Shown here one piece after another: positions 744 to 35,545 of a stretch of 64,000 bases of DNA (position 1 is the stretch's first letter; each line of letters begins with the position of its first letter). The DNA is taken from assembly GCA_025455775.1 (NCBI GenBank), contig JALOLT010000001.1, forward strand, positions 4,444-68,443, read 5' to 3'. The DNA comes from Fimbriimonadaceae bacterium. GTDB lineage: Bacteria; Armatimonadota; Fimbriimonadia; Fimbriimonadales; Fimbriimonadaceae. A program made the position numbers and the translations under genes. The notes beneath the pieces are model-generated. The model made no database searches and was not told the DNA's origin. It saw nothing but the letters and a program-made list of their open reading frames with translations.

Positions 744-829
744 TGGTGCCGGGAGTGGGACTCGAACCCACACTGGTTTTATCCAAACGGTGTTTGAGAC
801 CGCCGCGTCTACCATTCCGCCATCCCGGC
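744..829 (-). tRNA. tRNA-Leu (anticodon CAA), type II with long variable arm, CCA encoded
   Basis: Reverse complement reads GCCGGGA-TG-GCGG-AATGGTAGA-CGC-G-GCGGT-CTCAAAC-ACCGT-TTGGATAAAACCAGT-GTGGG-TTCGAGT-CCCAC-TCCCGGC-ACCA. This gives a 7-bp acceptor stem, T-loop TTCGAGT, anticodon loop CT-CAA-AC and a 15-nt variable arm. Confidence 0.93.
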
Positions 830-9999: not shown

Positions 10000-10446
10000 T
10001 CAGGGCTTTGGCTTGCGGTAGCGTCTTGGCTCGGGAACGACCTTGTTGGCATAGACCTTAAAGGCGAAAGCTCCCATGATGCCAAGTGTCAAAACGAAGG
10101 CTCCTAGGATGACAGGCCAAGTCGACGGTTTGTCCTTTGATTCAAGCTCTTTGCCGACTTGTGCCACCGTTGAGGCAGCACTGGCGGTCGGATCTGCCTT
10201 CTGCGCGACGGCTTTCTCGCCTTGTGCCTTGCTCTCTTCTTGCTTTACCTCGGTTTCAAGCTTTTCTGGTTGAATCTGGACTCCACTCGCAGGGGCCACA
10301 GTCGCGTCACTGGATCCTTGCATCTGCTGAAGCTGTTGCTCAGAAAGCTCTCCGTGAAACTTCGCCCCTGTTGGTCTGTCTTCGATGGGAGCAAAGCTGA
10401 GGCAGGCGAGTGCCAGGACTGAGATGCACGCAAAAAGTTTTTTCAT
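10000..10446 (-). CDS. secreted low-complexity protein with C-terminal membrane anchor
   Basis: 148 aa. Signal peptide MKKLFACISVLALACLSFA, then an acidic, Gln-rich middle, then C-terminal TM WPVILGAFVLTLGIMGAFAF with a basic tail. ATGA overlap with the upstream gene. Confidence 0.6.
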   Translation of the reverse strand: MKKLFACISVLALACLSFAPIEDRPTGAKFHGELSEQQLQQMQGSSDATVAPASGVQIQPEKLETEVKQEESKAQGEKAVAQKADPTASAASTVAQVGKELESKDKPSTWPVILGAFVLTLGIMGAFAFKVYANKVVPEPRRYRKPKP

Positions 10447-12401: not shown

Positions 12402-12463
12402 TGGTTCAGGGCACCATGGTCTGGGAGTTCCCCCAGGGGTGATTTCCCTAGGGTGGACTCAAA

Positions 12464-13297
12464 CTAAAACGCTGAAACTGGTCTCCTCGGCGGTGGCGGG
12501 GGTGGCGGCGGAGGCGGTGGTGGCGGTGGCGGTGGTTCAGGTGGAATCACCGGTGGTGGAGGAGGAGGTGGTGGTGGAGGCGGAGGCGGTTCCTCATGCG
12601 TTGGCGGAGGAGGGGGAGGTGGGGGAACATAAACCCAATCATCTACCCAGGGGCCGGGATCCTCGAGTCCTGCATCCGACTGTCCAGTGTGGTTTCGGAG
12701 CTCGATCAGCAGCCTCTTGCGGCCAAAGATCGCATCCTGACCGCTCGAGCGAGTGGCTGTGACAAGGGTCACGTAAAATTGTTTTCCACTCCCCCCGTGT
12801 GACTCAAAGATCTTGTAGGCCGGCGACCCACTCACCATGGTCGGGAGGCTGACCCCTGTGTGGAAAGTCTTCCCACTACCGGCAGCCAGGTAAGGATCGC
12901 GACTCATGACATTGCGAGCCAAAACCCTGGTCGCAGCTCCCTCAATGAGCAAAAGATCGGTTCCCGAGAGTTGAATTCTGCGATTTACTCCGTCCCAGGT
13001 GAGAGGCAGAGTGTATCCGCCACTGGCATCTGTCTGAGGGAGGCGATAGGTGAGGCCCTGTCCGTCCGCATCCAGCACAACACTCAGGGACGAACGCAGA
13101 AGACTTGCCACTTTACGGGTGGCGAGATCACTGTCCCCTTCGGTCACGACCCAGGCACTGCCTTTCTTCCAAGATGCTGCACTCGTGAGCATAGCTGTGC
13201 TGGCAGCATAAATCACAAGGACGGCTGTCCCCCCTGCCGCGAGCATCTCGATGAGAGTGTGTCCTTTCTTTAACTTTGAGCAAGGTTTTTTGATCAT
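12464..13297 (-). CDS. pseudopilin with prepilin-type N-terminal motif and polyproline C-terminal tail
   Basis: The start chosen at ATG 13297 forms an ATGA overlap with the upstream stop. The motif KKGHTLIEMLAAGG matches G-x-T-L-I-E. The C-terminus is PPPPPPPPTHEE-P13-VIPPE-P16-RRPVSAF. Confidence 0.75.
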   Translation of the reverse strand: MIKKPCSKLKKGHTLIEMLAAGGTAVLVIYAASTAMLTSAASWKKGSAWVVTEGDSDLATRKVASLLRSSLSVVLDADGQGLTYRLPQTDASGGYTLPLTWDGVNRRIQLSGTDLLLIEGAATRVLARNVMSRDPYLAAGSGKTFHTGVSLPTMVSGSPAYKIFESHGGSGKQFYVTLVTATRSSGQDAIFGRKRLLIELRNHTGQSDAGLEDPGPWVDDWVYVPPPPPPPPTHEEPPPPPPPPPPPPPVIPPEPPPPPPPPPPPPPPPPRRPVSAF

Positions 13298-13806
13298 AAG
13301 TTTGCCAGTAAGGCCCCGAGCTTTACAAATCTGGTGGTGCTCCCCTCTTGCCAAAAGACGATAACTTCAACCGCTCTGAGGTTTGGGTTAATCTCGCTAA
13401 AGGTTAGAAACGAGCGTCCATAGGGAAGGAGCTTTCCCGCCGAATCCACCTGAGGGTCATCGACCCATGTAGACTCATAAGCTGGATAGCTCGCTGTTCC
13501 AAAAAGCATTGCGCTATGGAGATCGACGACCGTCAGGGAGTCGAGCATTCCGTTGTCAAAGGCTCGCGCCGCGGTCGCGTTCGGGAACCCAAGCGACTTG
13601 GCTTTTTCGATCTGCTTTTGTGCCAGTGCAAGGGCAATATTTGCCTTTTCTGCCTTCGAACGGGAGCCGTTCGCGATCGGCATTGCACCAGAAACGATCA
13701 GACAGCACGCGAGAGCGATGAAGCACCCGATCATCGCTTCGAGGAGCGAAAACGCCTTTGTTCCTTTCCTTCTACCAGCAACTTGCCGTAAGGCCATCTT
13801 TTCCAA
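13294..13806 (-). CDS. pseudopilin (prepilin-type N-terminal cleavage/methylation domain)
   Basis: 170 aa with a TTG start. The motif TKAFSLLEAMIGCFIALACCLIV has Glu at +5, followed by a hydrophobic helix. Confidence 0.7.
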   Translation of the reverse strand: MEKMALRQVAGRRKGTKAFSLLEAMIGCFIALACCLIVSGAMPIANGSRSKAEKANIALALAQKQIEKAKSLGFPNATAARAFDNGMLDSLTVVDLHSAMLFGTASYPAYESTWVDDPQVDSAGKLLPYGRSFLTFSEINPNLRAVEVIVFWQEGSTTRFVKLGALLANL

Positions 13807-13897
13807 CCGATTCTGACCCTGTGTTTGGGGCCAGTCCTAAGGTTCATTATCGGGAGGCGTACCTCTGTTTCTTCACCGACAAAATGCTGGAGCGAAG

Positions 13898-14317
13898 TTA
13901 TTGAAACCTTCTGCCGGGAGTGATTTGTCGGTCTGCCCAGCGACGTAAGGCAAACATCGATCCAAGCCCGATGCCGAGAGCAGCAAGGCCAAAAAGGACA
14001 GGCGCAACCAGGTTCGGACGATCTTCGACCTGTGCCAGAGCCATCAAGTCAGAATCCGAGACAGGCTTAATGGCGACACTGGATCTGCCGACGCGCGCAG
14101 GATCTCTCTGCGAGGGTGGTGAACCTTGTTCAAGTGGCTTTCGCCACTCCTTGCTCGGAGTCAAAGCCTCAGGCTCGGGAATCGTGAGAGCCCTTGCAGA
14201 CTCACTCTTGCGCGTTGGCCTGTCCTCAGCACGGGAAACCTGGCCAAGGCTCGAACAGGCCAGACCCAGGCAACAAAGGACAGCGATCGCAAGCTTCACA
14301 CCATGGATCATTGGCAT
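13898..14317 (-). CDS. secreted low-complexity protein with C-terminal membrane anchor
   Basis: Start taken at the internal ATG 14317, giving MPMIHGVKLAIAVLCCLGLACSS (signal peptide). C-terminal TM VAPVLFGLAALGIGLGSMFAL with a basic tail. The competing plus-strand ORF 13920..14495 is Arg/Ser-rich and looks out of frame. Confidence 0.5.
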   Translation of the reverse strand: MPMIHGVKLAIAVLCCLGLACSSLGQVSRAEDRPTRKSESARALTIPEPEALTPSKEWRKPLEQGSPPSQRDPARVGRSSVAIKPVSDSDLMALAQVEDRPNLVAPVLFGLAALGIGLGSMFALRRWADRQITPGRRFQ

Positions 14318-14439
14318 GCCATCAACTAAATCCCAGGGGGGCAGTTGCAGTGAGCCCCTTCCAACCAGTAAAAATCCTGGGGGGAAGGGGCTGGGCAACT
14401 CGCGAATGAGTTCCGGCTACTTGGCTGGGAGATGGGCGA

Positions 14440-15786
14440 TCAGTTCAGAGTCCACATTTGCGGCCGAGAGATCGTTGGGTGCTCGATCCGAATGACACGA
14501 GTCGTCCGGTTAAAAGCAAGAGGCTTTCTTGTGTAGGGGTCGATGGGAATCGCTTTCAGGATTCCCGATGACTGCAGGTCGTCGAGTCCTTTCGGAATCT
14601 GGTTGAATCGCGCCTGATACAGCCTGACGGCCAAGAGAGTCTTCGCCCCGGTCAGAGTTGCTTCAGCCCGAAAACCTGGATCGGAAATCTTCCCATAGTT
14701 CGGCAGGAAAGAGAGGACGAGGTACTTGCCGTAGGGATTCTTAATCTTGGAGAGCTTTTCTCGGATAGCACTCTTTTGCTTGTCCGTGGTTTGTCCATCC
14801 ACCGAGAAGACCTCTGCCGGAAATGGTCCGATCAGTTCCGGGATTTCGGCGAGTGCCTTTTCAATTGCAAAGTAGTCTTTCGTCAGAGCATCAACGAGCC
14901 GCGTGTAGGTGCTTCGCGCAAGGTCAAGTGTCTCAGCGACGTTCAAGGGCTCGGGATGTCCTGCGAGAAGGGGTCTCCAAAACTCTTCCTCAGGGTGATC
15001 CGTAGGATCAATGGCTTCACCGTCGAGAGCAGCATTGATCGGCATCTTTGCTGGGAAACCCTGGGCGAGGCCACGTGTCACGAAGCGATCATCAAGCTCT
15101 CTTCGAACCGTATCTGCGAGAGTCTGTCTCAGCGATACACGGGCTTCGACCAAGCGCAAGAGTTTTTGGCTGTCTTCTGCAGAAAGTTGCTGCGTGGCTG
15201 CCATTTCCGCAAGTGTGTTGGCATATTGCCGAGTGGCGATGACGCCATCCATCCATTCTGGCAAGGTTCTGGCTGAGGCTAACATCTGATCCGTGAGACC
15301 AGCGATGCGGCTTGCCTCATCATAGACAGCCTGCATATCGCCTTGGCGGACGACAGTTTCGAGGCGGGCCTGGAGCACTCTCGTGTAGGTTTTTGCCAGG
15401 GATCGCGCAGCCCGCGGATCCTTTCCTGGCTGATCTACGCTCCTGTGCCACGTAGGCTTTGCAATGGCCTGATCTATGATCTGGGCGATTGGAGCACTGT
15501 CTGCCAAGAACGTTGCACGCGATCCACGGAGCGTAAAACTAGGCCCAGAGGCCAAGACAGCCCAACCATTCTCGCCTGCCTGCGGTTGTTCATCAGCGAT
15601 TGTGAGCTTGGGGCCAAGGGTTTGACGGATGGTGTCAACCTCTACCGGCTCAACCGTAACTAAAGGTTGGTTCCCGACAGATCTCGCCCACACGATGATT
15701 GCTGTCGCTGCAAGCAACGACACAACTGAAACTCGTCCCACATGTATTTTTCCTGTTTGCATCCTAGAATCCCATCCAACCCCCAT
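14440..15786 (-). CDS. membrane-anchored hypothetical protein
   Basis: 448 aa with N-terminal TM VSVVSLLAATAIIVWA. The C-terminal IPIDPYTRKPLAF recalls the DPWG-type strand of GspG-like pseudopilins, but the resemblance is weak. Confidence 0.6.
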   Translation of the reverse strand: MGVGWDSRMQTGKIHVGRVSVVSLLAATAIIVWARSVGNQPLVTVEPVEVDTIRQTLGPKLTIADEQPQAGENGWAVLASGPSFTLRGSRATFLADSAPIAQIIDQAIAKPTWHRSVDQPGKDPRAARSLAKTYTRVLQARLETVVRQGDMQAVYDEASRIAGLTDQMLASARTLPEWMDGVIATRQYANTLAEMAATQQLSAEDSQKLLRLVEARVSLRQTLADTVRRELDDRFVTRGLAQGFPAKMPINAALDGEAIDPTDHPEEEFWRPLLAGHPEPLNVAETLDLARSTYTRLVDALTKDYFAIEKALAEIPELIGPFPAEVFSVDGQTTDKQKSAIREKLSKIKNPYGKYLVLSFLPNYGKISDPGFRAEATLTGAKTLLAVRLYQARFNQIPKGLDDLQSSGILKAIPIDPYTRKPLAFNRTTRVIRIEHPTISRPQMWTLN

Positions 15787-15957
15787 CGGTAGGCATAGCG
15801 CGTACTACGTGCTCGGTTTGTAAAAGGTTCGGCCTAAACAGGGTAAATCTTCCTAAAAATATGGGGAAAATTCGCTCCCCATTCAATCAATGAATGTTCA
15901 GACCTCGCCACGATTGGCACCAGAGGTAAGCGGGCCAGGGGGAGTAATATCCCTGCG

Positions 15958-16467
15958 ATGTCTTTGATCAACCTCCCCGTGGGAGTCAATGCTCCTCATT
16001 CTGTGAATGTGGTGATCGAAATCCCAAAACACAGTACGAATAAGTACGAGTACGACCCTGAACTGGGAGCAATGAGACTAGATCGCGTGCTCTTTTCCCC
16101 CCTCTTCTACCCGTGGGACTATGGCTTTATTCCTTCGACCAAGTACCTGGATGGCGACCCAGTCGATTGTCTCGTCCTGTGCTCACACCCGACCTTTCCC
16201 GGGGTAGTGGTCGAAGCGAAACCAATCGGAGTTCTGGAGATGGTGGATGGCGGGCTCAGAGACGAGAAACTCCTGTGCGTTGCTGCTAAAGATCCTCGCT
16301 TTGGGAATCGAGCAGGAATGCATGAGGTCAACCCCCACACGCTCGATGAGATCGTCCACTTCTTCGAAGTCTATAAGCAGCTCGAAAACAAAGCGGTGGA
16401 TGTAAGGGGCTGGCTCCCAAAAGAAACAGCGATCGAGATCATCGAGAAGTTCCGCCTGGATCGCTAA
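15958..16467 (+). CDS. ppa: inorganic pyrophosphatase (family I)
   Basis: 169 aa. Typical family I pattern: KYEYD, DGDPVDCLVL, and DEKL..V near the active-site region. Confidence 0.93.
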   Translation: MSLINLPVGVNAPHSVNVVIEIPKHSTNKYEYDPELGAMRLDRVLFSPLFYPWDYGFIPSTKYLDGDPVDCLVLCSHPTFPGVVVEAKPIGVLEMVDGGLRDEKLLCVAAKDPRFGNRAGMHEVNPHTLDEIVHFFEVYKQLENKAVDVRGWLPKETAIEIIEKFRLDR

Positions 16468-16498
16468 GTTGATCCGGCAACCACCGATTCGGCAAAGA

Positions 16499-17281
16499 CT
16501 ACTTCGCTGTGACGCGCACGTCAATCCTGCGATTCTTCTGACGCCCTTCCTCGGTGGCGTTATCCGCTTTTGGGAATTGGGGGCCGTAGCCCTCTGCCTC
16601 AAGCCTTGTGCCATCGATTCCGAGTGTGATCAGGGCGTCGCGGGTGGCATTGGCTCGATCCGTTGAGAGTTTTTGGTTTGTCTCGGCATTTCCCGTATTG
16701 TCTGTGTAGCCGCCGATTTTGAGTTTCACGTCTGGGAAGGCCCGCAATATGGTTGCGATGTTTTCGAGCTGCTTTTGACTCGATGGCCGAATCGTGGCCC
16801 TTCCACTCTCAAACTCGAGGGAGTCAAAGGTAAACCAGGTGGTTCGATCGACTGGCTTGTTCTCGTCTCGGATAAAGGCGATCAACTGGCCTTCGATGCC
16901 ATTGGCGTTGAAGGTGATGTTTGCCCCACCAGGCAAATCCGCATTTGTCTCTTGGGCTGGGGATTTGGTTGGCTCTTCGCTCCTCCGGGCGCTCGTTTCG
17001 CCTGGCCTACCTGCGGCCAGATCTAGCGCGGCGGGAGATGCGAGACCCTTTTTCTTGGGAGCGATGGCGACAGCCTGGAAATCCGAACTATGGCTACTCG
17101 AGGCGTGGCCCTTGTCGCTCTTCTTCTCACCAGCCTTGGCTGATTCTGTGATGACGTAAGCCAAGCCAGCAAAAACGAAAACCAGAAGCGGGATCGCCCA
17201 AAGCCATCTTGACTTTTGGTCGTAGTCCTTGGAGGCAGGAGAGACAGAAGGAGGGTTTTGCTGGATTTCACTCATGGTCAA
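16499..17281 (-). CDS. OmpA/MotB C-terminal domain protein, membrane anchored
   Basis: 260 aa. N-terminal TM WLWAIPLLVFVFAGLAYVI and a disordered linker. The C-terminus GGYTDNTGNAETNQKLSTDRANATRDAL...RRIDVRV is the OmpA_C signature. Confidence 0.85.
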   Translation of the reverse strand: MTMSEIQQNPPSVSPASKDYDQKSRWLWAIPLLVFVFAGLAYVITESAKAGEKKSDKGHASSSHSSDFQAVAIAPKKKGLASPAALDLAAGRPGETSARRSEEPTKSPAQETNADLPGGANITFNANGIEGQLIAFIRDENKPVDRTTWFTFDSLEFESGRATIRPSSQKQLENIATILRAFPDVKLKIGGYTDNTGNAETNQKLSTDRANATRDALITLGIDGTRLEAEGYGPQFPKADNATEEGRQKNRRIDVRVTAK

Positions 17282-25115: not shown

Positions 25116-27701
25116 TCACGGACGGAAGAGAACCGTAGCCGAAAGGGGCGCCAAAGGCAAGGTTCCAGAGACCTGCCTCAGAGCTTTCGTTCCCGCCTGA
25201 TCTCCTTCGACTGCGACCGACCAACTCCCCGAAGGCAAGGTCATTTTGCTTGCCTGCAATCCTCCGTGCAAAACGACCAGAATCTCTCGCCAGCCACTCC
25301 CCACCTTGGCTCCATCCACCAAGTATGCGATCGTTTGGCGAGGGACTTGGCTCTCTGAGAGGAACGTCATCTTCGTCGTCACTGCCTCAGTGGTTGCCAG
25401 CCGCAAACCTGGTTGGGAGCGGCGGAGCTGGATCAACCCCTGGGTGTAGCGGAATAGGCCCTGATGTTTTTTGGCAAGTTCCCAATCGTATTGGTTCGCC
25501 TCGTCTCCCGCGTTGTAGGAGTTGTTGTTCATGTTCTTGGTTCGCCCCAACTCAACCCCCCCTTCCAAGAAGGGCATTCCCTGGGCGAGCAAGACAGCTG
25601 CAGTTCCTAAGCGCACGCCTGACTCTCTGAGGGGGTTGTTCGAACCGAGTGAGAGAGCAACGCGGTCCCACCAAGTGAGGTTATCGTGGGCGCTCACATA
25701 GTTAACCGTCTCTTGCGGGGAGTTTGTGAAGTCCTTCACGGACCCCATGAGGGCGGAGATCAAGCCATTGCGATCCACGACTCCACCCAGAGCAAAGCCT
25801 GGTCCAGCGGCATCGAGTTCGCCGCGAAAAGCCCCACGAAAACGATCATTAAAGACGGCAACGCCAGTGCCGCGCTGGTCACCTTTGCCAAATCGGGTGG
25901 GGCCGCCTCCTGTCCAGGGCTCGCCATAGATGACAGCTGCTGGGTTGATTCTGCGGATGGCTCTGGCAAAATCTGCGTTCGAATCTCTGGTGAACATCCC
26001 GATGAGGTCGAATCTATATCCATCCAGGCGGTACTCCCTTGTCCAGAACTCGAGACTCTCGCGGATGAACTTTCGCACCATGGGTCGTTCGTCGTGAAGC
26101 GCATTCCCGACTCCCGATTCGTTGAGGACAAATCCGCGGTCATCGGTGCGGAAGTAGAAGTAGGGAACCAGTTCCCAGAATGCAGAGAGGGGTCCCTCGC
26201 TCGGCACTGAGTGGTTATAGACGACGTCCAAGACGACTCCAATTCCTGCCTGTTGCATGGCCAACACCATCTCCTTCACTTCGCGAATTCTGGCAGCAGG
26301 GTCGGTTTTGTTCACCGCATACTGTTCCTCCGGAACGTTGAAAAGAGTGGTTTCGTAGCCCCAGTTGTACATGTTGCTGTGCTGGGGATTGAAGTCTTGG
26401 AATGGCAAGATGTGGACGTGGGTGACCCCGAGCGACTTGAGGTAATCGAGCCCCGTCGGGAAGTTTGTGCCGGGGATTTTGGTTCCTCTCTGAGTTAAGC
26501 CCAGATACTTGCCGCGCCATTCCGGGCGAACCCCACTCATGGGATGAATCGTGAAATCTCGCACGTGGATTTCGTACAAGACTGCGTCTGTGTGGTTCTT
26601 TCCCTGGAAAAGCCGAGGATGTGGCCATCCTCGAGGATTCGTTCTGGCGAGATTCAAGACGACAGAGCGGCTTGAGTCGGCAGAGGCAGCTTTTGCGTAA
26701 ATGTCCGCTGCATATCGAGTTTTGCCGTAGGAGTTTAGGCGGTACTGGTAGTAGGTGCCGTCTAGGTTGCCGGGAACGGTAGCGACCCAGGTTCCGCGGG
26801 GTCCGCGTCTCATGGGAATCGACCGCTGCACCCCCGAAGTTGCGCTTTTGAAGAGAAGGAGATCGACTTTGGTGGCAATTGGCGACCAAACCTTGAAGGT
26901 TGTCTGTCTGGGAGTCCAGGTCGGCCCTAAATCTCGCCCGGTGTAGACAGAGGCTGGCTCGTCGAGCACTCCTCGGCTGATCACAATCCGTTCCGGGCCG
27001 TTCGCGACTCTCACTTTGATCTGGCGGGAAAGTTCTGAGAGAGTCAAGGGCTTGGCCAGTCGGGCGATGACTGACTGGTACTTCCCTTCGGTTTCATCCG
27101 AAGGGAAGGTGGGGGTGGGAGGCAGGACGTTTGGTGCTTGAATAAGGCTCGGCTGGTTCACAGAGTCGCGAATCCATCTCTCCTTAAAATTCACGACGAA
27201 CTTCACAATTTTGGGGCTTTCGAGGACGAGGTCAATGTTATTCCCGTTTGGTGTGAAGTTTTGTCCGTAGTTTTCACCCCAGCTTGCGCCTCTGGCAACT
27301 TTGTACTGGTAGCGTCCAGCTGGAAGCTTCACCGTGAGTTCAAAGAGGTCTGGGGTTACCCTGACCATCCGGGTGATGGTTCCTGCTGGATCCCAAGGAT
27401 TCGCGCCGAGAGCAGATTGGATTGTTCCAGCCAGAACGACGAAGTTCGGATTCCCAGTTTGGCTGAGTCTGGCTCCGCCTGAGACAGAGCGAATCTCTCT
27501 GACTTTGCCGTCGATGGTGAGTCGGATTTTTCCCTTGACGGTCTCTGGCTTGACGGCATCTGGAAGCCAGATTCTCACCTCGTCAAACCGATCCAGAAAG
27601 GCAGGAGCCAGCTCGGCAGAGCTTTGTCCCCAAGCAACTGTGCCGAGGGTCAAGAGGCAGACTCCGCTGGCTATCCTCTTGAGAATACGTATACACGCCA
27701 T
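25116..27701 (-). CDS. pulA: type I pullulanase (GH13) with N-terminal carbohydrate-binding modules
   Basis: 861 aa with a signal peptide. YNWGYE, VVLDVVYNHS, GYRFDLIG, YGEPW and YVSAHDN conserved regions in order. Confidence 0.88.
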   Translation of the reverse strand: MACIRILKRIASGVCLLTLGTVAWGQSSAELAPAFLDRFDEVRIWLPDAVKPETVKGKIRLTIDGKVREIRSVSGGARLSQTGNPNFVVLAGTIQSALGANPWDPAGTITRMVRVTPDLFELTVKLPAGRYQYKVARGASWGENYGQNFTPNGNNIDLVLESPKIVKFVVNFKERWIRDSVNQPSLIQAPNVLPPTPTFPSDETEGKYQSVIARLAKPLTLSELSRQIKVRVANGPERIVISRGVLDEPASVYTGRDLGPTWTPRQTTFKVWSPIATKVDLLLFKSATSGVQRSIPMRRGPRGTWVATVPGNLDGTYYQYRLNSYGKTRYAADIYAKAASADSSRSVVLNLARTNPRGWPHPRLFQGKNHTDAVLYEIHVRDFTIHPMSGVRPEWRGKYLGLTQRGTKIPGTNFPTGLDYLKSLGVTHVHILPFQDFNPQHSNMYNWGYETTLFNVPEEQYAVNKTDPAARIREVKEMVLAMQQAGIGVVLDVVYNHSVPSEGPLSAFWELVPYFYFRTDDRGFVLNESGVGNALHDERPMVRKFIRESLEFWTREYRLDGYRFDLIGMFTRDSNADFARAIRRINPAAVIYGEPWTGGGPTRFGKGDQRGTGVAVFNDRFRGAFRGELDAAGPGFALGGVVDRNGLISALMGSVKDFTNSPQETVNYVSAHDNLTWWDRVALSLGSNNPLRESGVRLGTAAVLLAQGMPFLEGGVELGRTKNMNNNSYNAGDEANQYDWELAKKHQGLFRYTQGLIQLRRSQPGLRLATTEAVTTKMTFLSESQVPRQTIAYLVDGAKVGSGWREILVVLHGGLQASKMTLPSGSWSVAVEGDQAGTKALRQVSGTLPLAPLSATVLFRP

Positions 27702-27833
27702 GTCTTATCGTGTCACTGGTGGCCTGCGGAAAGAAAGAGAAGGAGCCAGCAATGAGCACTTTTTCGGGGAGGTTGGGCCTGAAGATAGGAGCTGCGCGAG
27801 TTCTGAAACGTCTAAAATTGAGTGTTGGCAGTC

Positions 27834-27862
27834 TTGACGTTCGTCGTGAAAAAGGATAGAAT
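27834..27862 (+). promoter_or_regulatory. sigma70-type promoter candidate (TTGACG-17 nt-TAGAAT)
   Basis: -35 TTGACG at 27834-27839, a 17-nt spacer, -10 TAGAAT at 27857-27862. A GGAG Shine-Dalgarno at 27878-27881 precedes ATG 27890. Confidence 0.5.
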
Positions 27863-27889
27863 TATCGATAAACCAACGGAGTTTTTAGT

Positions 27890-28618
27890 ATGATTGGATT
27901 CGAAGCCCCCCTGAACACCCGACTCAAAGAGATCTGGGAAGACATGACCTTGCCCCACGTTGCGCCTCCTTCTGGACTGCCTAGTCAGGTTGACTGGAGA
28001 TTAAAGCCGCGACCAGGGATGATGAACGACCCTGGTACTTGGCAAGCGTTGACGGCTTGGGGACAGGTCTACCTTGCCGACGGCACCGCAATGCCCAGTA
28101 ACACGAGAATTCAGGTTGCCGACGTCCAGGCCTGGATGCTGAACAAGAAGACCAGCAAGTGGATTATGGTTCAACACTCGGAGGTTCCTAGTGGGGCCTT
28201 CTATCGGGAAGACTTTGCCGAAGACAAGAATGTCCCGAGCGATGCCAAGCCTGAAAAGGGCGGAGGCGTTTCTATCCAGCTCAAGAAGGGTTACAACTAT
28301 CACTTCTGGCCAACTGGTGATCGCTACGTATTCAAAAAAGAGGAGATCGGGGGTTGGTACTTCACAGTTCGCACCCGCCTCATCGTAGCTGATCCCAGCC
28401 AGCCGGACGATCGAAGCAAGGCGAAGGTGATGATGGGGGTGGGAGCTGATTACTGGTCTACCCCAACTGCTGGCTGGGATAACTTCAAGACGAATGCGGA
28501 TCTTGCCATCGGTCGCTTAAGGTGGATCACCAATAACTGGACTTGGCACCACATGACAACTATCACGCGGGACGAACTGGCGAAGAATCCTCCGCCAATG
28601 CCGAAGCAGACTAAGTAG
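27890..28618 (+). CDS. hypothetical protein
   Basis: 242-aa ORF with a good promoter and Shine-Dalgarno context. No family recognised. Confidence 0.7.
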   Translation: MIGFEAPLNTRLKEIWEDMTLPHVAPPSGLPSQVDWRLKPRPGMMNDPGTWQALTAWGQVYLADGTAMPSNTRIQVADVQAWMLNKKTSKWIMVQHSEVPSGAFYREDFAEDKNVPSDAKPEKGGGVSIQLKKGYNYHFWPTGDRYVFKKEEIGGWYFTVRTRLIVADPSQPDDRSKAKVMMGVGADYWSTPTAGWDNFKTNADLAIGRLRWITNNWTWHHMTTITRDELAKNPPPMPKQTK

Positions 28619-28621
28619 TCC

Positions 28622-28719
28622 TGACTGGCTCCCCTCCGCCCGCGGCCAAACCCGCCCGGTTCACCATGGGTCGCCATGATCCGAACACTCGTCCGGGCCG
28701 CCCGGCGGGGAGCCAGTCA
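28622..28719 (+). repeat. GC-rich hairpin repeat, same family, 98-nt long form (copy E)
   Basis: Arms tgactggctcccc (28622-28634) and ggggagccagtca (28707-28719) pair at 13 of 13 positions. Inner tccgcccgcgGCCAAACCCgcccgg ... tccgggccgcccgg. It starts 3 nt after the stop at 28618. Confidence 0.8.
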
Positions 28720-28883
28720 CCCGGCAGCACCTTCTCCAAGTCTTCACAGTGCCAGCCACCCCAGAAGGGGGTCGGATCGCCTCGGCCGGCGACCCCAGGT
28801 CAGGCCTCTCCCAAAATTCTTCTGCCAATCCTCGGCCAATCGGACTCACATCTTGTACGAGCGTCAAGCTCGCGAGAAGCAAG

Positions 28884-29048
28884 ATGAAACACTCCGAAAC
28901 AACAGAAAAAACCGCCGAAACTCTCACCCCCAAGAGTCATTCTCGACTCGTCGCCCTGGCCAGGCTCCTGAAAGACAGAGCCGAAACAGCCGAGCGAAAA
29001 CGACTCGCCGAAGAAGAGGCAAAACGGCAGAGAGCCTTTCTTGACTAG
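28884..29048 (+). CDS. possible 54-aa highly charged helical peptide
   Basis: ATG 28884 is preceded by GAGAAG. Translation: MKHSETTEKTAETLTPKSHSRLVALARLLKDRAETAERKRLAEEEAKRQRAFLD. It ends 25 nt before the E1-like ATG. No independent support. Confidence 0.3.
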   Translation: MKHSETTEKTAETLTPKSHSRLVALARLLKDRAETAERKRLAEEEAKRQRAFLD

Positions 29049-29073
29049 CCCGGCAGGACGTGGAGTGAACCCC

Positions 29074-30186
29074 ATGACGATGATTCGACTTCCTGCCCTC
29101 TCCTTGATAGAGGCTCTTAGGGGCCAGAGAGAAAGCATCCTCCCATGGCGGATGGGCTGCACAACTCGCGCCGACGGGATCCTGTATCTCGCTGCCCCCC
29201 TGTCAAACAGAACCCTTCTGAGCCGGGAGCCATCCTCCAGGTCGGAGCAACAACACATCCAAGTGACATTTGATCCCGTCGAACAGAGATTCTCAGCCAA
29301 AGTCCCTGATGGCTCTGAGGCGGAGGTTGAGCTTCGACCTGACTGGTCAGATGGGGCGATCGTGTCCTCAGCTTTGCAAGGGTGGGAGGAGTTAGTTCCT
29401 CCTACTCGGATTCGAATGACAGGAGCACTAGGTCTGGAGGGTTGGCTGCTCACTGGCTCACTGAAGGTCGGTGTGATAGGGGCAGGGGGGCTTGGCTCTC
29501 AGCTCCTCGTCCAAATGGTCGCAGATGGCTATCGAGATTTTGTCATCTGTGACCCAGATGTCTACGATCTCTCGAATCTTGGACGAATGCCACCAGGATT
29601 CGGGGAAGAAATCGTGGGACTCCCAAAGGCAGAGGCTCTTTCCCAAAAGCTAAAGGAAATCGAACCGCTCGTCAGGGTCGTGCCGATTCAGGCAGAGTTT
29701 GAAGGCTGGGATGCTTTCTCAAACTTCATCGACTGCGACATCGTCGTTTGTTGTTGTGATTCTGCAAGGACGCGTCGCGCTGCTGCCAGGTTTGGCTGTC
29801 GCTACCTGGTTCCCCTGATCCATATTGGCACTGGCATCTTTGCTGGTTCTGATACTCCCGTGATGGTCTGGGAGGGAGCGGTTTGGAATCCGGGCGACGG
29901 CACCTGTCTCTCTTGCCTTTTGAATCTGGATCGCTCGGCGGCAGAGAGATCCGACCTGGAGCGAGAGGTCGCGGAGAGGCGCCTTGGTTCTTTGCGGTCT
30001 CTCAACCTCGCCCCGATCTCGTGGGCGATGAGAAGCATCGAAGATCTCTTCACAGCTCGACTCCTCGAATCGACCTACGTCCAAGGGGCTTGGATTGAAG
30101 GTCACGCTCAGTTAGTTCGGGGCTCCGCCCAAAGGATCCCCGACTGTGCCTGTTCTCTGCTGGCAGCGGGAGATTACGGTCTGTGA
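29074..30186 (+). CDS. ThiF/MoeB-family E1-like adenylyltransferase with unrecognised ~110-aa N-terminal domain
   Basis: ATG 29074 with GGAG 7 nt upstream; the track start is a TTG at 29041. Motifs VGVIGAGGLGS, DLSNLGRM, GLPKAEAL, VVCCCDSARTR and the Cys pairs CLSC and CAC are collinear with MoeB/ThiF as remembered. Confidence 0.85.
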   Translation: MTMIRLPALSLIEALRGQRESILPWRMGCTTRADGILYLAAPLSNRTLLSREPSSRSEQQHIQVTFDPVEQRFSAKVPDGSEAEVELRPDWSDGAIVSSALQGWEELVPPTRIRMTGALGLEGWLLTGSLKVGVIGAGGLGSQLLVQMVADGYRDFVICDPDVYDLSNLGRMPPGFGEEIVGLPKAEALSQKLKEIEPLVRVVPIQAEFEGWDAFSNFIDCDIVVCCCDSARTRRAAARFGCRYLVPLIHIGTGIFAGSDTPVMVWEGAVWNPGDGTCLSCLLNLDRSAAERSDLEREVAERRLGSLRSLNLAPISWAMRSIEDLFTARLLESTYVQGAWIEGHAQLVRGSAQRIPDCACSLLAAGDYGL

Positions 30187-30281
30187 TGGCCCTCAGTGAA
30201 ATCTTCTGCCACCAGCCCTGCGATTCTGCTCTGATACGAGTGTCCGACCTTTGTTTCTGACCTTTGCTGGAGAAAAACACG

Positions 30282-31124
30282 ATGGCAACGACCGCCTTCA
30301 CCCCGAATCAATCTTCTGCCATGGCTCTTACCCTAGACGCTGGCCACTACCTCGCTCTGGATGAACTGATCCTGTCGAATCGAGACTTTACGAGGCCCTA
30401 TGAGCCTGCCGCCTGTGCCCCTTTTTGCCAGCTTAAAGAGGATCTGGTGGATCGCTTGCTCTTGATGCAAGCTCAAAGACTCCGAGTCTCGTATGACGTG
30501 AACTGGGAGCGGAAGGAGACGATCCTGCCAGAACTCTTCGCGACGCTCGTCTACTTAAATCGACAAGGTTGCGAAACGGGCATGGTGCTTCGACTCTTGA
30601 CGCCAACCGATCATCATTCCCGCCTGCTCCGTGCTCTCGCCCTCGCCCCCCTCGGCTATCCAGAGGTAAACCGAATTCAATCCGTCCAGGACTATCTTCT
30701 TGGCGGCTTGGCCGTTCGCTCCGCTCCCTCTGCGCAGCTTCGTTCGACCTATGACGCTATGGTTGATGAGCAGCTCGACACTCTTGCCCTTGTAGAGAAC
30801 ATGCTCGGGCAGGCGAAGGCCGAAGGCTTTGACCTCGCAGTAGAGTTCAAGCCCGAGTATGATCCGCCTTCCATGGCAGTTTGGCGAGAGGATCGTTTTG
30901 GTGGTTGTGCCCATGAGGTCCTGGTAGGGTTGCGGGGCAGCGCCTTGACGATCGACGACGAGATGGCCTGCTCGTGCAGCTCCTCGCGAGTTCTGGCGAC
31001 CCTCGAAGCGCGCTTGAACAGCCCCCTCTTCCCACCGGTTCAGGCACGGGAGGTTCTCTCTTCGCTCAAGTCCGGCCTCGCGCGCGAAATGGTTGCCGCA
31101 TTCGGCCAGATCCAAGCGGCCTAG
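30282..31124 (+). CDS. hypothetical protein
   Basis: 280 aa from ATG 30282 with GGAG 9 nt upstream; the track start is a TTG at 30264. No family recognised. Confidence 0.65.
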   Translation: MATTAFTPNQSSAMALTLDAGHYLALDELILSNRDFTRPYEPAACAPFCQLKEDLVDRLLLMQAQRLRVSYDVNWERKETILPELFATLVYLNRQGCETGMVLRLLTPTDHHSRLLRALALAPLGYPEVNRIQSVQDYLLGGLAVRSAPSAQLRSTYDAMVDEQLDTLALVENMLGQAKAEGFDLAVEFKPEYDPPSMAVWREDRFGGCAHEVLVGLRGSALTIDDEMACSCSSSRVLATLEARLNSPLFPPVQAREVLSSLKSGLAREMVAAFGQIQAA

Positions 31125-31132
31125 ACGCAGAC

Positions 31133-31166
31133 GAGCCCCCTTCTCAAAAAGGGGGCTCACCTTTTC
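31133..31166 (+). terminator. intrinsic terminator
   Basis: Perfect 10-bp stem gagccccctt / aagggggctc with loop ctcaaa, followed by accTTTTcc. It starts 9 nt after the stop at 31124. Confidence 0.75.
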
Positions 31167-31193
31167 CTCTGTGCCGGATGACAAATTTGAACT

Positions 31194-32684
31194 CTAGCGC
31201 AGCACGCCAGCAATGATCGAACGAGGGCGAACGGTGATAGAGAGTCTTCCACCCTTGGTGCCGAGCGACTGCTCTGGTTCGTCAGGAAGAGGAAAGGGAA
31301 CTCCTCCCATGGGGTGTCCGCGATGTCGGTTCCAGACCACTCTCCTGGTTTCCCAAGTGTTGGGTGGGGAGCCAGTCACTTCGTCAAAGTGGAACTGCTT
31401 TCGGTTGGTTCGAAAGGCGACTTGTTTCGCCACACCGCCAATATTCACAAGTAATAGACCCTGTGAACCGTCGCTGCGCTCGCTCACAAAGACCTGGACA
31501 GAGTCGTCTCGCCTTGTGAGACGGGTCAGACGCTCTCCAATAAATCGCTGGTGGAGGACATAGGCAGCGTAGGGGGCGTATGGAGTGCCTTCCGGCATCG
31601 GACTTTCCCTACCGCTTGCCAATATCCCGTGTTCGCCTTGGCCTCCTTCTTCTCGGGGCTTGTTATCCCAACCGTTCTTCCAATCCCAGTAGTTCGCCAT
31701 AAAGAACCCTTGTTCGTGGAGTTCACAAAGAAGGAGGGTGGTAAAAGCAGTGTTTGTAAACTCGACTGTGGGGCCAGAGTTTCCGAGAACGATGTTAAAC
31801 TCTGTCAGAGCAATCGGGTAGGTTTTGCCAGCATATTTTCGACAGGCAGTATCAACCAGCCTCCTTATTTCGCTGATCCTCTTCAGCCGAGCAAAGCACA
31901 TTTCCGGGGTTTGCGGGATGAACTTCTCTTTTGCGTCGTAGGGCCAGGCAAAGTAGTCGTGCACGATCATAAAATCGGCATGATCTTTGACCACAGGGAG
32001 CATCCGCCTTGTCCAAAAGTCGTATCCGCCAGATGTGTAAGTTCCCTTTGCGTCTTCTGGCACGATGCAGGCTCCCACTTTGATCGTTGGATCAACCTCC
32101 TTCATCGCTTTAGCAATTTCGATAAAGTGGGCTCCATACAATTCGCCAGTAGTGACTGTCTCACCAACCTTGAATCCAGCTTCCCAGGAGGCAAAAACCT
32201 CGTTTCCGATCTCCCAATAGCGGACATTCGCCTTTTGTTCGATGTTAACTTTTCGAACCCATTCTGCTGCTAGCTTTTTTGCTTTCTCGATCCCGTGCTG
32301 CCTGGCGATACCGTAGTTGATCGTGATCAGCCCAGTGGCCCCCTTGGCCTTGATCATCTTTAGGAAAGCGTCTGTATCCAGGGTCCAGGGATCCAGGATG
32401 CCAGGAATTCGCGTGGGAAACTCGTCAAATTTACGGTTCCAAACGTATTCATTGCTGGCACTGCCACCGGGGAATCGCCAAACGCTCAAGCCTGCGGCTT
32501 TGCTCTTTGCGATCTGGTCAGGATGGAGACTCCAGTCTTTACCAGCCCACCAGGCGGTGTTCATTCCGTAATTTAGGTTTTGAACTGCCGCGCCCTTTGG
32601 GACTCGATTCAGGTCTAAGCGGAGGACAGAGTTTGATGGCTGGTTAAGGAGCAGGCAGGCTGCAAGTCCAAGTGATGTAATCAT
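31194..32684 (-). CDS. clan GH-A (TIM-barrel) glycoside hydrolase, family not resolved
   Basis: 496 aa. RFPGGSASNEYVW, the acid/base-type motif YWEIGNE and the nucleophile-type LTEFN. Signal-like N-terminus. Confidence 0.75.
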   Translation of the reverse strand: MITSLGLAACLLLNQPSNSVLRLDLNRVPKGAAVQNLNYGMNTAWWAGKDWSLHPDQIAKSKAAGLSVWRFPGGSASNEYVWNRKFDEFPTRIPGILDPWTLDTDAFLKMIKAKGATGLITINYGIARQHGIEKAKKLAAEWVRKVNIEQKANVRYWEIGNEVFASWEAGFKVGETVTTGELYGAHFIEIAKAMKEVDPTIKVGACIVPEDAKGTYTSGGYDFWTRRMLPVVKDHADFMIVHDYFAWPYDAKEKFIPQTPEMCFARLKRISEIRRLVDTACRKYAGKTYPIALTEFNIVLGNSGPTVEFTNTAFTTLLLCELHEQGFFMANYWDWKNGWDNKPREEGGQGEHGILASGRESPMPEGTPYAPYAAYVLHQRFIGERLTRLTRRDDSVQVFVSERSDGSQGLLLVNIGGVAKQVAFRTNRKQFHFDEVTGSPPNTWETRRVVWNRHRGHPMGGVPFPLPDEPEQSLGTKGGRLSITVRPRSIIAGVLR

Positions 32685-32759: not shown

Positions 32760-32960
32760 TTATTGACCAGGTGTTGAACCTTTGTCTTGAGTGGCTCCTT
32801 GTTGTCTTGCCTCGTTCACCTTATCCATGTAATCGGCAGGGGGAGGAGACCCTTTAAAGTCCTTCGCGTCGGTGGGGCTTGTCTTTTCGAGCGGAGCCTC
32901 ACAACCAGCCAAGAAGAGACCAATCAGGGCCAGGACGCACAAGAAGAGAAGCTTTCTCAT
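32760..32960 (-). CDS. small lipoprotein
   Basis: 66 aa starting [20 protein letters not shown] (lipobox). ATGA overlap with the DUF1559 gene. Confidence 0.6.
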
Positions 32961-33763
32961 CCTTCTCGCTTACCGTCCCACATGTTTCGTTCTGGCTGAG
33001 CCGTCTTGTTCGGGTTGGTTTGAACAGGCTTCATGGCCTTGGCGTGGCTATCGATAAAGACAAAGACAGAAGACTCATTGAACTTGGCGCTGACTGCCCC
33101 AGCTCTTCCGTTCGGATAGGCGGCAGTGGCAGGAAGAGTGCCATCAGGGATAGAAGCTGGTCCCCACACGTTAAAGTTGTGGCCAAAGAACATGCTGCTT
33201 GGCCAGAAGCTACTCATATTCCCAATCCAGTAGACCTTCTTCAGATCTTCGTTGTGCTTCTCAGCCAGAAGGATCGTATCCGCCGGGCGAGACATCACGC
33301 TAAAGGAGTTTTCTCCCACTCCGCCGTTGAGCCATCCTTCACCAGTGATCCCCATGGGACCGCGGAGTTGGAATCCAATTGGGTCGGTCCAGAAGTCCAT
33401 GTAGCCGTTGGCGGCAAAGGAAATTCCGACACCCATCCAGTCGTCTGCTGCGCCTCCATGCTTTTGGTAGGCCCGACCATCACCTGGGCTCGTAAAGATC
33501 CCTAAGTTCTTGGTGTATGGAGCAAGCTTTTGTTGCCAAAGAGCATCACCGTACCAGCCTGTCCCGACGCCGGATGGGAAGACGTCGTCGTTGTCGGCGA
33601 GGTAAATGTGCATCGAAGTTCCCAGTTGCTTCACATTGCTCAGAGCTTGAGTTTTCTTAGCAGCTTGCTTTGCTTGAGCAAAGACAGGGAAAAGGATCGC
33701 GGCAAGGATCGCAATTATAGCGATCACGACGAGTAGTTCAATAAGCGTAAACGCGCGTTTCAT
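32957..33763 (-). CDS. DUF1559-type protein with prepilin-like N-terminal methylation motif
   Basis: 268 aa. Starts [33 protein letters not shown]-terminal FIDSHAKAM lies at the position of the H-X9-DG motif. Confidence 0.85.
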
Positions 33764-33778
33764 GATTTTTCTCTTACT

Positions 33779-34849
33779 TCATTGTGAGGTCTTGCCCCCT
33801 GATTTCTTTGGAGGAGGGGCAGTTGAGTTACGGGTGACAATTCTTGATGGGACGGTCACTTCGATCGGTTGCTGAGGTCTTTCGCGAACGATCTGCATCA
33901 GCAAGTCCGCACCCTGAATTCCGAACTCAACCAAGGGTTGCTCGACGGTCGTCAGGGGGTAATTATCAAAATCTTGTGGGGTGTTGTCGAAGCCAGTGAT
34001 CGAAAGATCTCGAGGGACGCTGAGGCCAAACTCGATCGCTGCCTTCCAGGCTCCCATCGCCATATCGTCATTTGCAGCGACCAGGGCAGTGGGAGGATTG
34101 TCTTTGGTTTCAAGGAATAAGGAAACGGTCCTTTCGTAACCAGTTTGGAAATGGAAGTTTCCGACCTTGACGAAGTCTTCATCGATCAAGATTTCGTACT
34201 GACGATGAGCCCTTTCAAAGCCTGTCCATCGCTCTTGCGCGGTAGTTGACTCCGGCGGACCAGCGAGAAATGCAATCCTCTTATGGCCAAGCTCGATGAG
34301 ATGGCAAGTGAGACTATAGAGGCACTCCTCGTTGTTCGTATCGACAGAAGAGAGTAGAGGATAGCGGGCATTGATCAACACCAGAGGAATCCCCCGAGAA
34401 TGGATGGCGAGCATCCGCTCCAAACCGTTAGAAGCTCCAATAACGACGTGGCCCTCAGTTCTTCCGTCAACGTAGGGACTAAAATCAAAGGCTTCGTCCA
34501 TCCAGGTTGCCCCAGTGAAGAGCATCGCGTTTTTATGATCGCGGCGGGCCACGCGGAGGACGCCGTCCAGGATCGGGCCGAAGTAAGGGCTCCCAATGAC
34601 TGACTCGACTTCGTGAGGAAGAACAACTCCAAAAGCATGAGCTGGGAGTCCCTTCATTTGCCGCGCTGCGCTCGAAGGAGAGTATTGCAGCCGGTGAATG
34701 ACATCCAAAACTTTTCGCTTTGTGTCGGGCCTCACATCGCGCGGGCCATTGTTGATGACATACGAAACTGTGGCGGTGGAGACACCTGCCTCGCGGGCGA
34801 TGTCCTGGAGGGTCGGGCGACGTTTATCTGCCATGAGTCCAGTCATCAT
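33779..34849 (-). CDS. LacI-family transcriptional regulator
   Basis: HTH PTLQDIAREAGVSTATVSYVINN followed by a periplasmic-binding-protein-type domain. The start was moved to ATG 34849 (34846 and 34834 are also possible) because the track start at 35041 overlaps the upstream gene. Confidence 0.88.
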   Translation of the reverse strand: MMTGLMADKRRPTLQDIAREAGVSTATVSYVINNGPRDVRPDTKRKVLDVIHRLQYSPSSAARQMKGLPAHAFGVVLPHEVESVIGSPYFGPILDGVLRVARRDHKNAMLFTGATWMDEAFDFSPYVDGRTEGHVVIGASNGLERMLAIHSRGIPLVLINARYPLLSSVDTNNEECLYSLTCHLIELGHKRIAFLAGPPESTTAQERWTGFERAHRQYEILIDEDFVKVGNFHFQTGYERTVSLFLETKDNPPTALVAANDDMAMGAWKAAIEFGLSVPRDLSITGFDNTPQDFDNYPLTTVEQPLVEFGIQGADLLMQIVRERPQQPIEVTVPSRIVTRNSTAPPPKKSGGKTSQ

Positions 34850-34886
34850 TTTGTGTCTCCACCAATCCTGTTTGCGCTCTTTCCGA

Positions 34887-35519
34887 CTATCGTTTGGCTT
34901 TTCTTCGCCGTGCGGCAACCGCAGCACCAAGAGCCAAGATCCCCATCGTAAAGGGCTCAGGCACAGGCGTGAAGCGCATGTTGTCAATGTAAACAAGACC
35001 AGTTCCCTGGGTATAGGCGCCAAACTGAGTTCCGTCGGCAATGTTCAAGCCGACGAGCAGTCCCAAGTTCGGGAAGGCACCAACAGCAGGAATGGCGAAG
35101 GAAACAGACTGTGTTGAACCCATCGTGATCGGGGTCGTAACGCTTGTCCAATCATCCCAAACCTTGTGGTGAACCACGAGAGCCTCAAAATATCCAGGCC
35201 CATCAACGGGATGAACGTTGAATGAGTCGGTGGGAACCGTGATGTCGAAACTGAGCGTCCCGCCAAGAGCCATCAAGGTTTTCAGACTTGGATCTGTGGA
35301 ATTGATGAACAGCTTATAACCTGGCTCCACCTTCGCCATCAGACTATGAGTCCCTTCCGTGACTCCGATCGTGGTCGAATACTGAAGTGATCCCAGCTGG
35401 TTGCTGGAATCGGGAGACCAGACTCCTCCCGAGTTGTTGAATCCCTCCACGAGAACTTGAGAATTTGCTGCCGCAGCGAGGGCAACAGTAATTAAGCTTA
35501 TTGCAAAGAACTTGGTCAT
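34887..35519 (-). CDS. PEP-CTERM sorting-domain protein
   Basis: C-terminus FTPVPEPFTMGILALGAAVAARRRKAKR. Signal peptide MTKFFAISLITVALAAAANSQ from ATG 35519, with AGGTG Shine-Dalgarno. The track uses a GTG at 35528. Confidence 0.8.
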   Translation of the reverse strand: MTKFFAISLITVALAAAANSQVLVEGFNNSGGVWSPDSSNQLGSLQYSTTIGVTEGTHSLMAKVEPGYKLFINSTDPSLKTLMALGGTLSFDITVPTDSFNVHPVDGPGYFEALVVHHKVWDDWTSVTTPITMGSTQSVSFAIPAVGAFPNLGLLVGLNIADGTQFGAYTQGTGLVYIDNMRFTPVPEPFTMGILALGAAVAARRRKAKR

Positions 35520-35545
35520 AGTAAACACCTATGTTTCCGACTCCA

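Follow-up and report, generated by a model that had tools for sequence, protein, structure and literature searches.

We analyzed a 64-kb stretch of DNA (64,000 nucleotides, hereafter the window) from a contig of a Fimbriimonadaceae metagenome-assembled genome, in which a plus-strand gene unit encodes an enzyme related to the E1 adenylating enzymes. The unit is located between pulA (25116-27701, minus strand) and the gene of a 496-amino-acid (aa) hydrolase (31194-32684, minus strand). It comprises the genes MUC92_00145 to MUC92_00160, three of the four being labelled as hypothetical at NCBI, and its products are a 242-aa protein, a 54-aa charged protein, the 370-aa E1 and a 280-aa protein (Table 1). 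The promoter, open reading frames (ORFs), E1 motifs and hairpin reported in the original prediction were all present, and pulA was confirmed by Pfam. Comparison with other loci showed that the last three genes form a cassette of about 2.3 kb. In other bacteria it occurs beside immune-type genes for NACHT proteins, which resemble nucleotide-binding leucine-rich repeat (NLR) proteins, and this hints at a novel way of tagging proteins or peptides in bacteria.

Table 1. Features of the plus-strand unit in the window
Feature	Position	Strand	Basis or remark
Predicted sigma-70-like promoter, TTGACG-17-TAGAAT	27834-27862	+	5' of the 242-aa gene
242-aa protein, MUC92_00145	27890-28618	+	ORF list
GC-rich spacer, 265 bp	28619-28883	+	17-nt inverted repeat, no T-tract
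54-aa charged protein, MUC92_00150, MKHSE...LAEEEAKRQRAFLD	28884-29048	+	ATG ORF inside a GTG ORF (28749-29048)
E1, 370 aa	29074-30186	+	ORF list; TTG-extended version from 29041
E1 N-terminal domain, about residues 1-105	29074-29388	+	AlphaFold2 (AF2) model, Foldseek
E1 adenylation domain (ThiF fold)	29389-30186	+	Pfam, motif comparison
280-aa protein, MUC92_00160	30282-31124	+	ORF list; TTG-extended version from 30264
10-bp GC-rich hairpin with T-rich tail, ACCTTTTCCT	31133-31168	+	Between the convergent 280-aa and hydrolase genes

A search for E1 homologues among 5.8 billion protein clusters (90% identity) identified two clusters beyond its own that matched over the full length, P0002 (52% identity) and P0003 (47%). 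On the contig carrying P0002 (L001), a small ORF ending in EEARRQRALLD is followed by the E1 and then by a 292-aa protein sharing 29% identity with the 280-aa protein of the window (E 7e-23). The short contig carrying P0003 (L004) contains a 55-aa ORF ending in EEEAAKRRASAD and the E1. In a third locus found via the 280-aa family (L062), peptide, E1 and partner are arranged in the same order and followed by an integrase. Altogether, a small ORF was detected 5' of the E1 in six loci from four or five lineages (the window, L001, L004, L062, L003/L007 and L073, the sequence of L007 being that of L003).

The original prediction had described a unit of four genes and had suggested that the E1 may act on a partner encoded beside it. 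The E1 does have dedicated neighbours in the 54-aa and 280-aa proteins, both of which recur with it in L001 and L062, but not in the 242-aa gene, which is not co-conserved. No counterpart of the latter was found in L001, L004 or L062; therefore, judged from gene order, the conserved core is the 54-aa protein, the E1 and the 280-aa protein, and the 242-aa gene is outside it. The 242-aa protein had no match in Pfam, NCBIfam, PADLOC, PHROGs or PDB sequences. A 242-aa protein of L064 and a 265-aa neighbour in L001 were considered as its homologues and dropped, as they showed no similarity.

The cassette is very rare and undescribed. Scans of metagenome, genome and viral contigs with the E1 alignment returned nearly exclusively generic ThiF relatives. 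As had been anticipated, none of Pfam, NCBIfam, PADLOC and PHROGs gives the system a name, nor do the papers searched, among which none was found to describe a system of NACHT protein, E1 and Asp-ended peptide.

Residues 139-299 of the E1 correspond to the ThiF domain PF00899 (Pfam, E 1.4e-27). The motif GAGGLG occupies residues 136-141 (29479-29496), and the further motifs are GAGGLGS, DLSNLGRM, CDSARTR, the Zn cysteines CLSC and CAC, and GSLRSLN. G136, A137, D160, D162, K185 and D229 were invariant in 28 aligned E1s, and the cysteines of CLSC and CAC (C279, C282, C359 and C361), which make up a four-cysteine Zn site, were invariant in the family. As far as these residues tell, the predicted adenylation site is intact.

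The closest described architecture is BubCD of Citrobacter (PDB 9ea4/9eav), a JAB peptidase-E1 fusion of the Type I Bub pathway, in which an invariant crossover-loop Tyr370 (RGY...APSVITLN) forms an oxyester intermediate (bioRxiv 10.1101/2024.11.21.623953). The crossover loop of the window E1 contains neither Cys nor Tyr (...EREVAERRLGSLRSLN, compared with ...ERGYITGVEEEAPSVITLN in BubCD), so an E1-bound intermediate would not be formed. The Arg of GSLRSLN was confined to E1s paired with Asp-ended peptides, while the JAB-active relatives and BubCD have PSVITLN, and this Arg is a candidate for recognition of the Asp side chain. A distant branch of the family, consisting of P0006 (L003/L007, E1 at 8001-9377 of L003) and P0029 (L073, 7494-8882), with 38% mutual identity over the full length, has also kept GSLRSLN and the Zn cysteines. 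The true ORF of P0029 encodes 462 aa; the JGI call (293 aa) misses about 170 N-terminal residues.

The AF2 model of the E1 had a mean predicted local distance difference test (pLDDT) score of 79 and a predicted template modelling score of 0.85. In it, the N-terminal ~100 residues adopt a beta-alpha-beta-beta...beta-beta-beta domain packed on the ThiF fold. In a Foldseek search of the PDB, the top rank went to Citrobacter BubCD, which aligned over both domains (415 columns, TMq 0.60, E 3e-14), and ThiF, MoeB, MccB and UBA5 aligned over 212-309 columns with TMq 0.44-0.49. The next-nearest relatives by sequence (P0004, P0007, P0043, P0051 and P0114) are JAB-E1 fusions of 450-495 aa with an intact HxHx7SxxD motif, their Prok-JAB matches in Pfam being weak to threshold. 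Alignment with the active JAB-E1 proteins P0004 and P0007 showed that HSHP...S..D is replaced in the window family. The window family thus lacks the Glu, His-x-His and Asp of the JAB site, and the motif positions read LYLAAPL. The predicted fold thus points to a JAB/MPN-like N-terminal domain that is catalytically dead. The original prediction had placed this domain outside ThiF/MoeB and called it unrecognised; the structural match to BubCD suggests a relative. The substrate clamps of MccB and PaaA, which it had cited for comparison, were not supported as a model for the domain, since predicted fold and nearest relatives both point to a dead, BubCD-like JAB domain.

The 54-aa protein is highly charged, with a conserved C-terminal half and Asp at its end, and its ORF is already included in the PGAP annotation. 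It had no match in Pfam, NCBIfam, PADLOC or PHROGs. Across the loci the peptides have 49-67 residues and terminate in RQRAFLD, RQRALLD, KRRASAD (twice), TRYRYD and VRYAAD, so that Asp is the last residue in all six, usually with basic residues three to six positions upstream. The peptides accompanying P0006 and P0029 (ending in HTRYRYD and QRVRYAAD, respectively) could not be aligned with the others. No other conserved C-terminus was found in the peptide-E1 loci, the peptide terminus being the sole invariant one.

The E1s of L004 and L062 are 96% identical, and the conserved C-terminal halves of their peptide genes differ by eight synonymous and three non-synonymous changes. The excess of synonymous changes indicates that the small ORF is translated and under purifying selection. 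Between these two loci, nucleotide identity is only 30-65% in the intergenic DNA upstream and in the part of the gene that encodes the N-terminal half of the peptide, compared with 90-100% for the E1. This local hypervariability suggests diversifying selection or cassette exchange. On the basis of gene adjacency and its invariant terminal Asp, the 54-aa protein is a candidate substrate of the E1.

The 280-aa protein belongs to a very small family. When 1.84 billion representative proteins were searched exhaustively with a profile, only seven cluster representatives were recovered, five of them new in that search. A word-index homology search found the protein itself only, even with a two-sequence profile. 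No match was obtained in Pfam, NCBIfam, PADLOC or PHROGs, and the family profile gave only noise against PDB sequences and Pfam. Its AF2 model, built on a two-sequence alignment, reached a pLDDT of 41, too poor to classify, and the top fold match (MITD1, E 0.03) was discarded for that reason. Three members are located 3' of a peptide-E1 pair (the window, L001 and L062). Three others occur without an E1 and are divergent from genes of 975-994-aa NACHT proteins (L063, L064-68 and L070, the NACHT of L070 being known as a 372-aa fragment only). The seventh (L069) is followed by an extracytoplasmic function (ECF) sigma factor. No homology to the 280-aa protein was detected for the incomplete gene that follows the E1 in L003, and a 332-aa gene of L064, tested as a cryptic E1, was rejected. 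The C-terminus is an aromatic P-x-W-x-F tail in three of the seven members (P0122, P0123 and P0127); in P0124 and P0126 it is likewise rich in aromatic residues but of different sequence (...WTWGPGD and ...RFFFS), and the window copy ends in ...FGQIQAA without an aromatic tail.

Genes for NACHT/STAND NTPases adjoin the cassette, outside the window, in every lineage with readable flanks. In L001 a 1523-aa NACHT/STAND protein is encoded directly 5' of the peptide, and gene fragments at the same place in L004 and L062 share 39% identity with its last ~50 residues. This protein is 28% identical over 725 aa (E 3e-51) to the NACHT of L063, which pairs with a 280-aa homologue; the same pairing was observed in L064 and L070. 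In L073 the peptide-E1 pair is divergent from an operon of an ECF sigma factor, a zf-HC2 anti-sigma factor and a 1252-aa NACHT-FGE-sulfatase protein. L003 carries a homologue of the N-terminal region of the latter together with a sigma-like protein. Directly 3' of the L001 cassette (10126-17107) there is a four-gene HATPase_c / Z1 / DUF4420 / AIPR cluster, which is a typical defence-island module, and L064 also encodes a TraG-like gene and a TPR-CHAT protein. The peptide-E1 pair and the 280-aa family are thus each associated with NACHT genes, frequently in surroundings typical of defence or mobile elements. PADLOC contains none of the NACHT partners, and no experimental data on protection were found in the papers searched. 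A second large protein, NACHT/HEAT, is encoded at the left end of L001. Between L004 (1-490) and L062, the NACHT gene is also hypervariable (30-65% nucleotide identity) just upstream of its last ~47 codons.

By its gene content and motifs, the cassette is not a Bub, Bil, CBASS, PRTRC, MccB or ThiF/MoeB system, because it lacks the JAB catalytic residues, the crossover-loop Tyr, a ubiquitin-like protein (Ubl), an E2 and BubE. It is closest to BubCD in architecture. BubCD has an N-terminal domain of JAB fold docked on a single ThiF-type adenylation domain, an arrangement that the model suggests for the window E1. In both, the crossover loop has no catalytic Cys and the genes occur in mobile or defence-type contexts. 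BubCD differs in possessing the JAB Glu, HxH and Asp as well as Tyr370, none of which is present in the window E1, and in lacking the first CxxC of the four-cysteine Zn site. The Bub pathway also includes the Ubl-E2 fusion BubAB and the DUF6527 serine protease BubE, whereas the window neighbours match no Pfam, PADLOC or NCBIfam model. Its substrate is a beta-grasp domain ending in Gly, in contrast to the helical charged 54-mer ending in Asp that is the candidate here, and the partners of the window family are a NACHT protein and the orphan 280-aa family.

In substrate logic, the cassette is closest to MccB-MccA or Pup. MccB, too, is an adenylating enzyme of the E1 type that carries an additional N-terminal domain for substrate binding and has a small peptide gene beside it. 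The last residue of MccA (Asn), like the Asp of the candidate peptide, has a carboxamide or carboxylate side chain able to join the chemistry; participation of the terminal Asn side chain is established for MccA, MccB chemistry proceeding via an Asn succinimide. The N-terminal domain of MccB has a different fold (TMq 0.47 compared with 0.60 for BubCD), the terminal residue is Asn instead of Asp, and the window peptide has a helical, conserved C-terminal half. Export, immunity and tailoring genes are absent from the loci of the window family, which are NACHT-linked. Pup, ligated by PafA, and UBact offer an analogy to the candidate tag, as they are small, largely disordered or helical, not of beta-grasp fold and attached through an acidic C-terminus. 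Pup is ligated through its Glu side chain by a glutamine-synthetase-like ligase, whereas the candidate activator here is an E1 and the terminus is Asp; genes for PafA, Dop or the proteasome were not found in the window. In CBASS type II (Cap2/Cap3), as may be the case in the window family, the E1 is a regulatory accessory of an immune sensor/effector module. The PADLOC E1-E2 models matched the adenylation core at 1e-12 over residues 141-250 only, PADLOC matches to the E1 being confined to residues 137-261, and the window locus has no E2 domain, CD-NTase/cyclase or active JAB. The PRTRC-type ThiF model TIGR03736 scored 24.6 bits against a cut-off of 144.75, and PRTRC-type neighbours are absent.

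Taken together, we favour, tentatively and as something less than an even prospect, the reading that the E1 is an accessory of an NLR-like system and adenylates the C-terminal Asp of the peptide, which would then be cyclised or transferred to a target. In this scheme the E1 would bind the small protein, using the dead JAB domain for docking and no longer for proteolysis, and would adenylate the alpha-carboxylate of the terminal Asp. A nucleophile of the target would then attack the acyl-adenylate directly, without an E1-bound intermediate. Alternatively, the Asp side chain might attack first to give a cyclic anhydride that acylates the target, a step which is speculation here and is drawn by analogy with the Asn succinimide of MccB. 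Likely targets would be the 280-aa partner, the NACHT protein or a protein of an invader, and in loci with a NACHT the tag would switch or mark the NLR-like system. The most economical guess at the outcome is that the 280-aa partner or the NACHT protein is modified or regulated. The cassette might even represent a third prokaryotic tag beside beta-grasp Ubls and Pup, one that is helical, hypervariable in its N-terminal half, activated at Asp, independent of covalent E1 or E2 intermediates, and controlling or executing NLR-like immunity based on NACHT proteins. It would possibly be attached through an Asp anhydride, the fused JAB protease having turned into a docking domain. This wider proposal appears rather unlikely to us.

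Several observations weigh against the favoured reading. The evidence for the mechanism is purely comparative, the substrate is proposed from gene adjacency and from the terminal Asp being invariant, and the family is known from only about six lineages. The ATP motifs of the distant-branch E1s are partly degenerate, GAGGLG being replaced by GASRGN (L073) or GAGRTG and NLGR by NLGE or HLGE; therefore, adenylation may not be universal in the family, and these E1s may be altered or inactive adenylases. In the N-terminal domain, pLDDT ranged from 48 to 89, and the superposition on BubCD was loose (root-mean-square deviation ~8 A). An hhalign comparison of the family N-terminal domains with active JAB N-terminal domains was not significant (probability <1%), and a family-only profile did not rank BubCD above other E1s. 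These two results leave the predicted fold and the domain architecture of the nearest relatives as the basis of the JAB assignment. A defence phenotype is not known even for the related Bub systems. Finally, no NACHT gene was found within the 64 kb of the window. Accordingly, the window contains a cassette from a family linked to NACHT genes and not a complete NACHT system, and the local function of this copy may differ or be vestigial.

In another reading, the window cassette would be a non-functional remnant that had been acquired horizontally, had lost its NACHT partner and persisted between glycan genes. Of the lineages, the window alone has no NACHT, the position of the NACHT in other loci is taken by the unrelated 242-aa gene and the structured spacer, and an integrase adjoins the L062 cassette. 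All three ORFs are nevertheless intact with every catalytic and Zn residue kept, the GC content is that of the flanks, the unit is flanked by a promoter-like site and a terminator-like hairpin, and a NACHT could lie beyond the 64 kb, so that we regard decay of the whole cassette as decidedly unlikely. It is unlikely, though less strikingly so, that the E1 acts elsewhere, for example on the C-terminus of the 280-aa or NACHT protein, much as CBASS Cap2 primes its CD-NTase, with the 54-aa protein as a regulator, adaptor or inhibitor of the E1 or the NACHT. The independent NACHT association of the 280-aa family and of the peptide-E1 pair would agree with such a role, as would the match of the PADLOC Cap2-type E1-E2 models to the E1 core and the P-x-W-x-F terminus shared by several 280-aa members. 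However, the C-termini of the 280-aa and NACHT proteins are not conserved (the window copy ending in ...GQIQAA), the only invariant C-terminus in the locus is that of the peptide, and there is neither an E2 domain nor an active JAB to reverse a conjugate.

A pathway for a ribosomally synthesized and post-translationally modified peptide similar to microcin C was also considered. The E1 would tailor the terminal Asp of a precursor by nucleotidylation, cyclic imide or anhydride formation or another modification to yield a bioactive peptide, and the 280-aa protein would be a tailoring or immunity factor. In its favour, a C-terminal Asn is activated by MccB, an E1-like enzyme whose N-terminal domain binds the substrate; MccB and PaaA were among the structural and sequence matches; and a short peptide gene is located directly 5' of the enzyme. 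This explanation is nevertheless improbable. MccB is structurally more remote than BubCD (TMq 0.47 vs 0.60), the terminal residue is Asp and not Asn, and a hypervariable N-terminal half with a conserved C-terminal half is the reverse of the usual leader and core peptide. Exporter, peptidase and immunity genes occur in none of the loci, and what recurs beside the cassette is a NACHT NTPase. By far the least credible reading, which the data already contradict, is a displaced ordinary ThiF/MoeB paralogue for sulfur-carrier or cofactor biosynthesis, which would account for the ThiF Pfam domain and the MoeB-like four-cysteine Zn site. The E1 scored 66.4 bits with TIGR02356 (ThiF, cut-off 275) and 53.2 with PRK05690 (MoeB, cut-off 266), and was far below every equivalog cut-off of NCBIfam; the NCBIfam matches covered the core only (residues 139-300), leaving out the extra N-terminal domain. 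Its full-length homologues, limited to P0002 and P0003 among the 5.8 billion clusters, never adjoin thiS, moaD, thiG or moaE. No GG-ended beta-grasp ORF was found nearby, the only GG-terminated candidate being a spurious antisense ORF inside pulA. The original prediction had likewise recognised no GG-terminated gene of the ThiS/MoaD type.

To our knowledge, the E1-family enzymes studied so far activate either a Gly-ended beta-grasp protein or, in the case of MccB and PaaA, the precursor peptide of an antibiotic, and the regulation of bacterial NLR-like proteins is largely unknown. If adenylation of the peptide by the E1 proves true, an E1 for a protein that is not of beta-grasp fold and ends in Asp would extend the range of reactions known from the superfamily, and the chemistry would be categorically new if the Asp-ended helical protein is the activated species. 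A JAB peptidase would also have been reused as a pseudo-enzyme, and E1 enzymes would be linked to bacterial NLR-like proteins.

At the boundaries of the unit, the promoter-like site matches the sigma-70 consensus at 10 of 12 positions and is the top-scoring site in 26500-32500, a region with seven sigma-70-like sites where 1.9 +/- 1.4 were expected. The terminator-like hairpin has a stem at 31133-31158 with 10 pairs (seven G-C) and a loop of six; terminator-like sites as a class were not enriched (six, compared with 6.9 expected). The arms of the spacer inverted repeat (28622-28638 and 28703-28719) are 94% complementary, and the RNA fold of 28615-28885 had a minimum free energy of -111.8 kcal/mol (z = -3.4). 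The spacer hairpin could be an attenuator, a processing site or the remnant of a repeat element. No promoter-like site was found within the spacer, and a single transcript of the 242-aa gene and the downstream genes is plausible. One arm of the inverted repeat recurs at 31363-31379. The GC content of the island was the same as that of its flanks and no bounding repeats were found, so a compositional anomaly or a repeat-flanked element was rejected. A second assembly (L074) displayed the same synteny but is 99.975% identical, and is therefore uninformative about selection.

In the window, the cassette is surrounded by glycan-utilisation and housekeeping genes. The 496-aa hydrolase downstream, assigned to clan GH-A in the original prediction, gave a sub-threshold Pfam match only (Glyco_hydro_44, E 0.13), so that this assignment was not confirmed. 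A LacI-family regulator (33779-35041) is flanked by two proteins encoded on the minus strand (32957-33763 and 34887-35528), one with a prepilin-type N-terminal methylation motif and the other with a PEP-CTERM-like C-terminal sorting signal (...VPEPFTMGILALGAAVAARRRKAKR). These three genes fit a neighbourhood of secreted glycan utilisation. The sole Rfam match in the window was a tRNA gene (747-829, minus strand, 59 bits).

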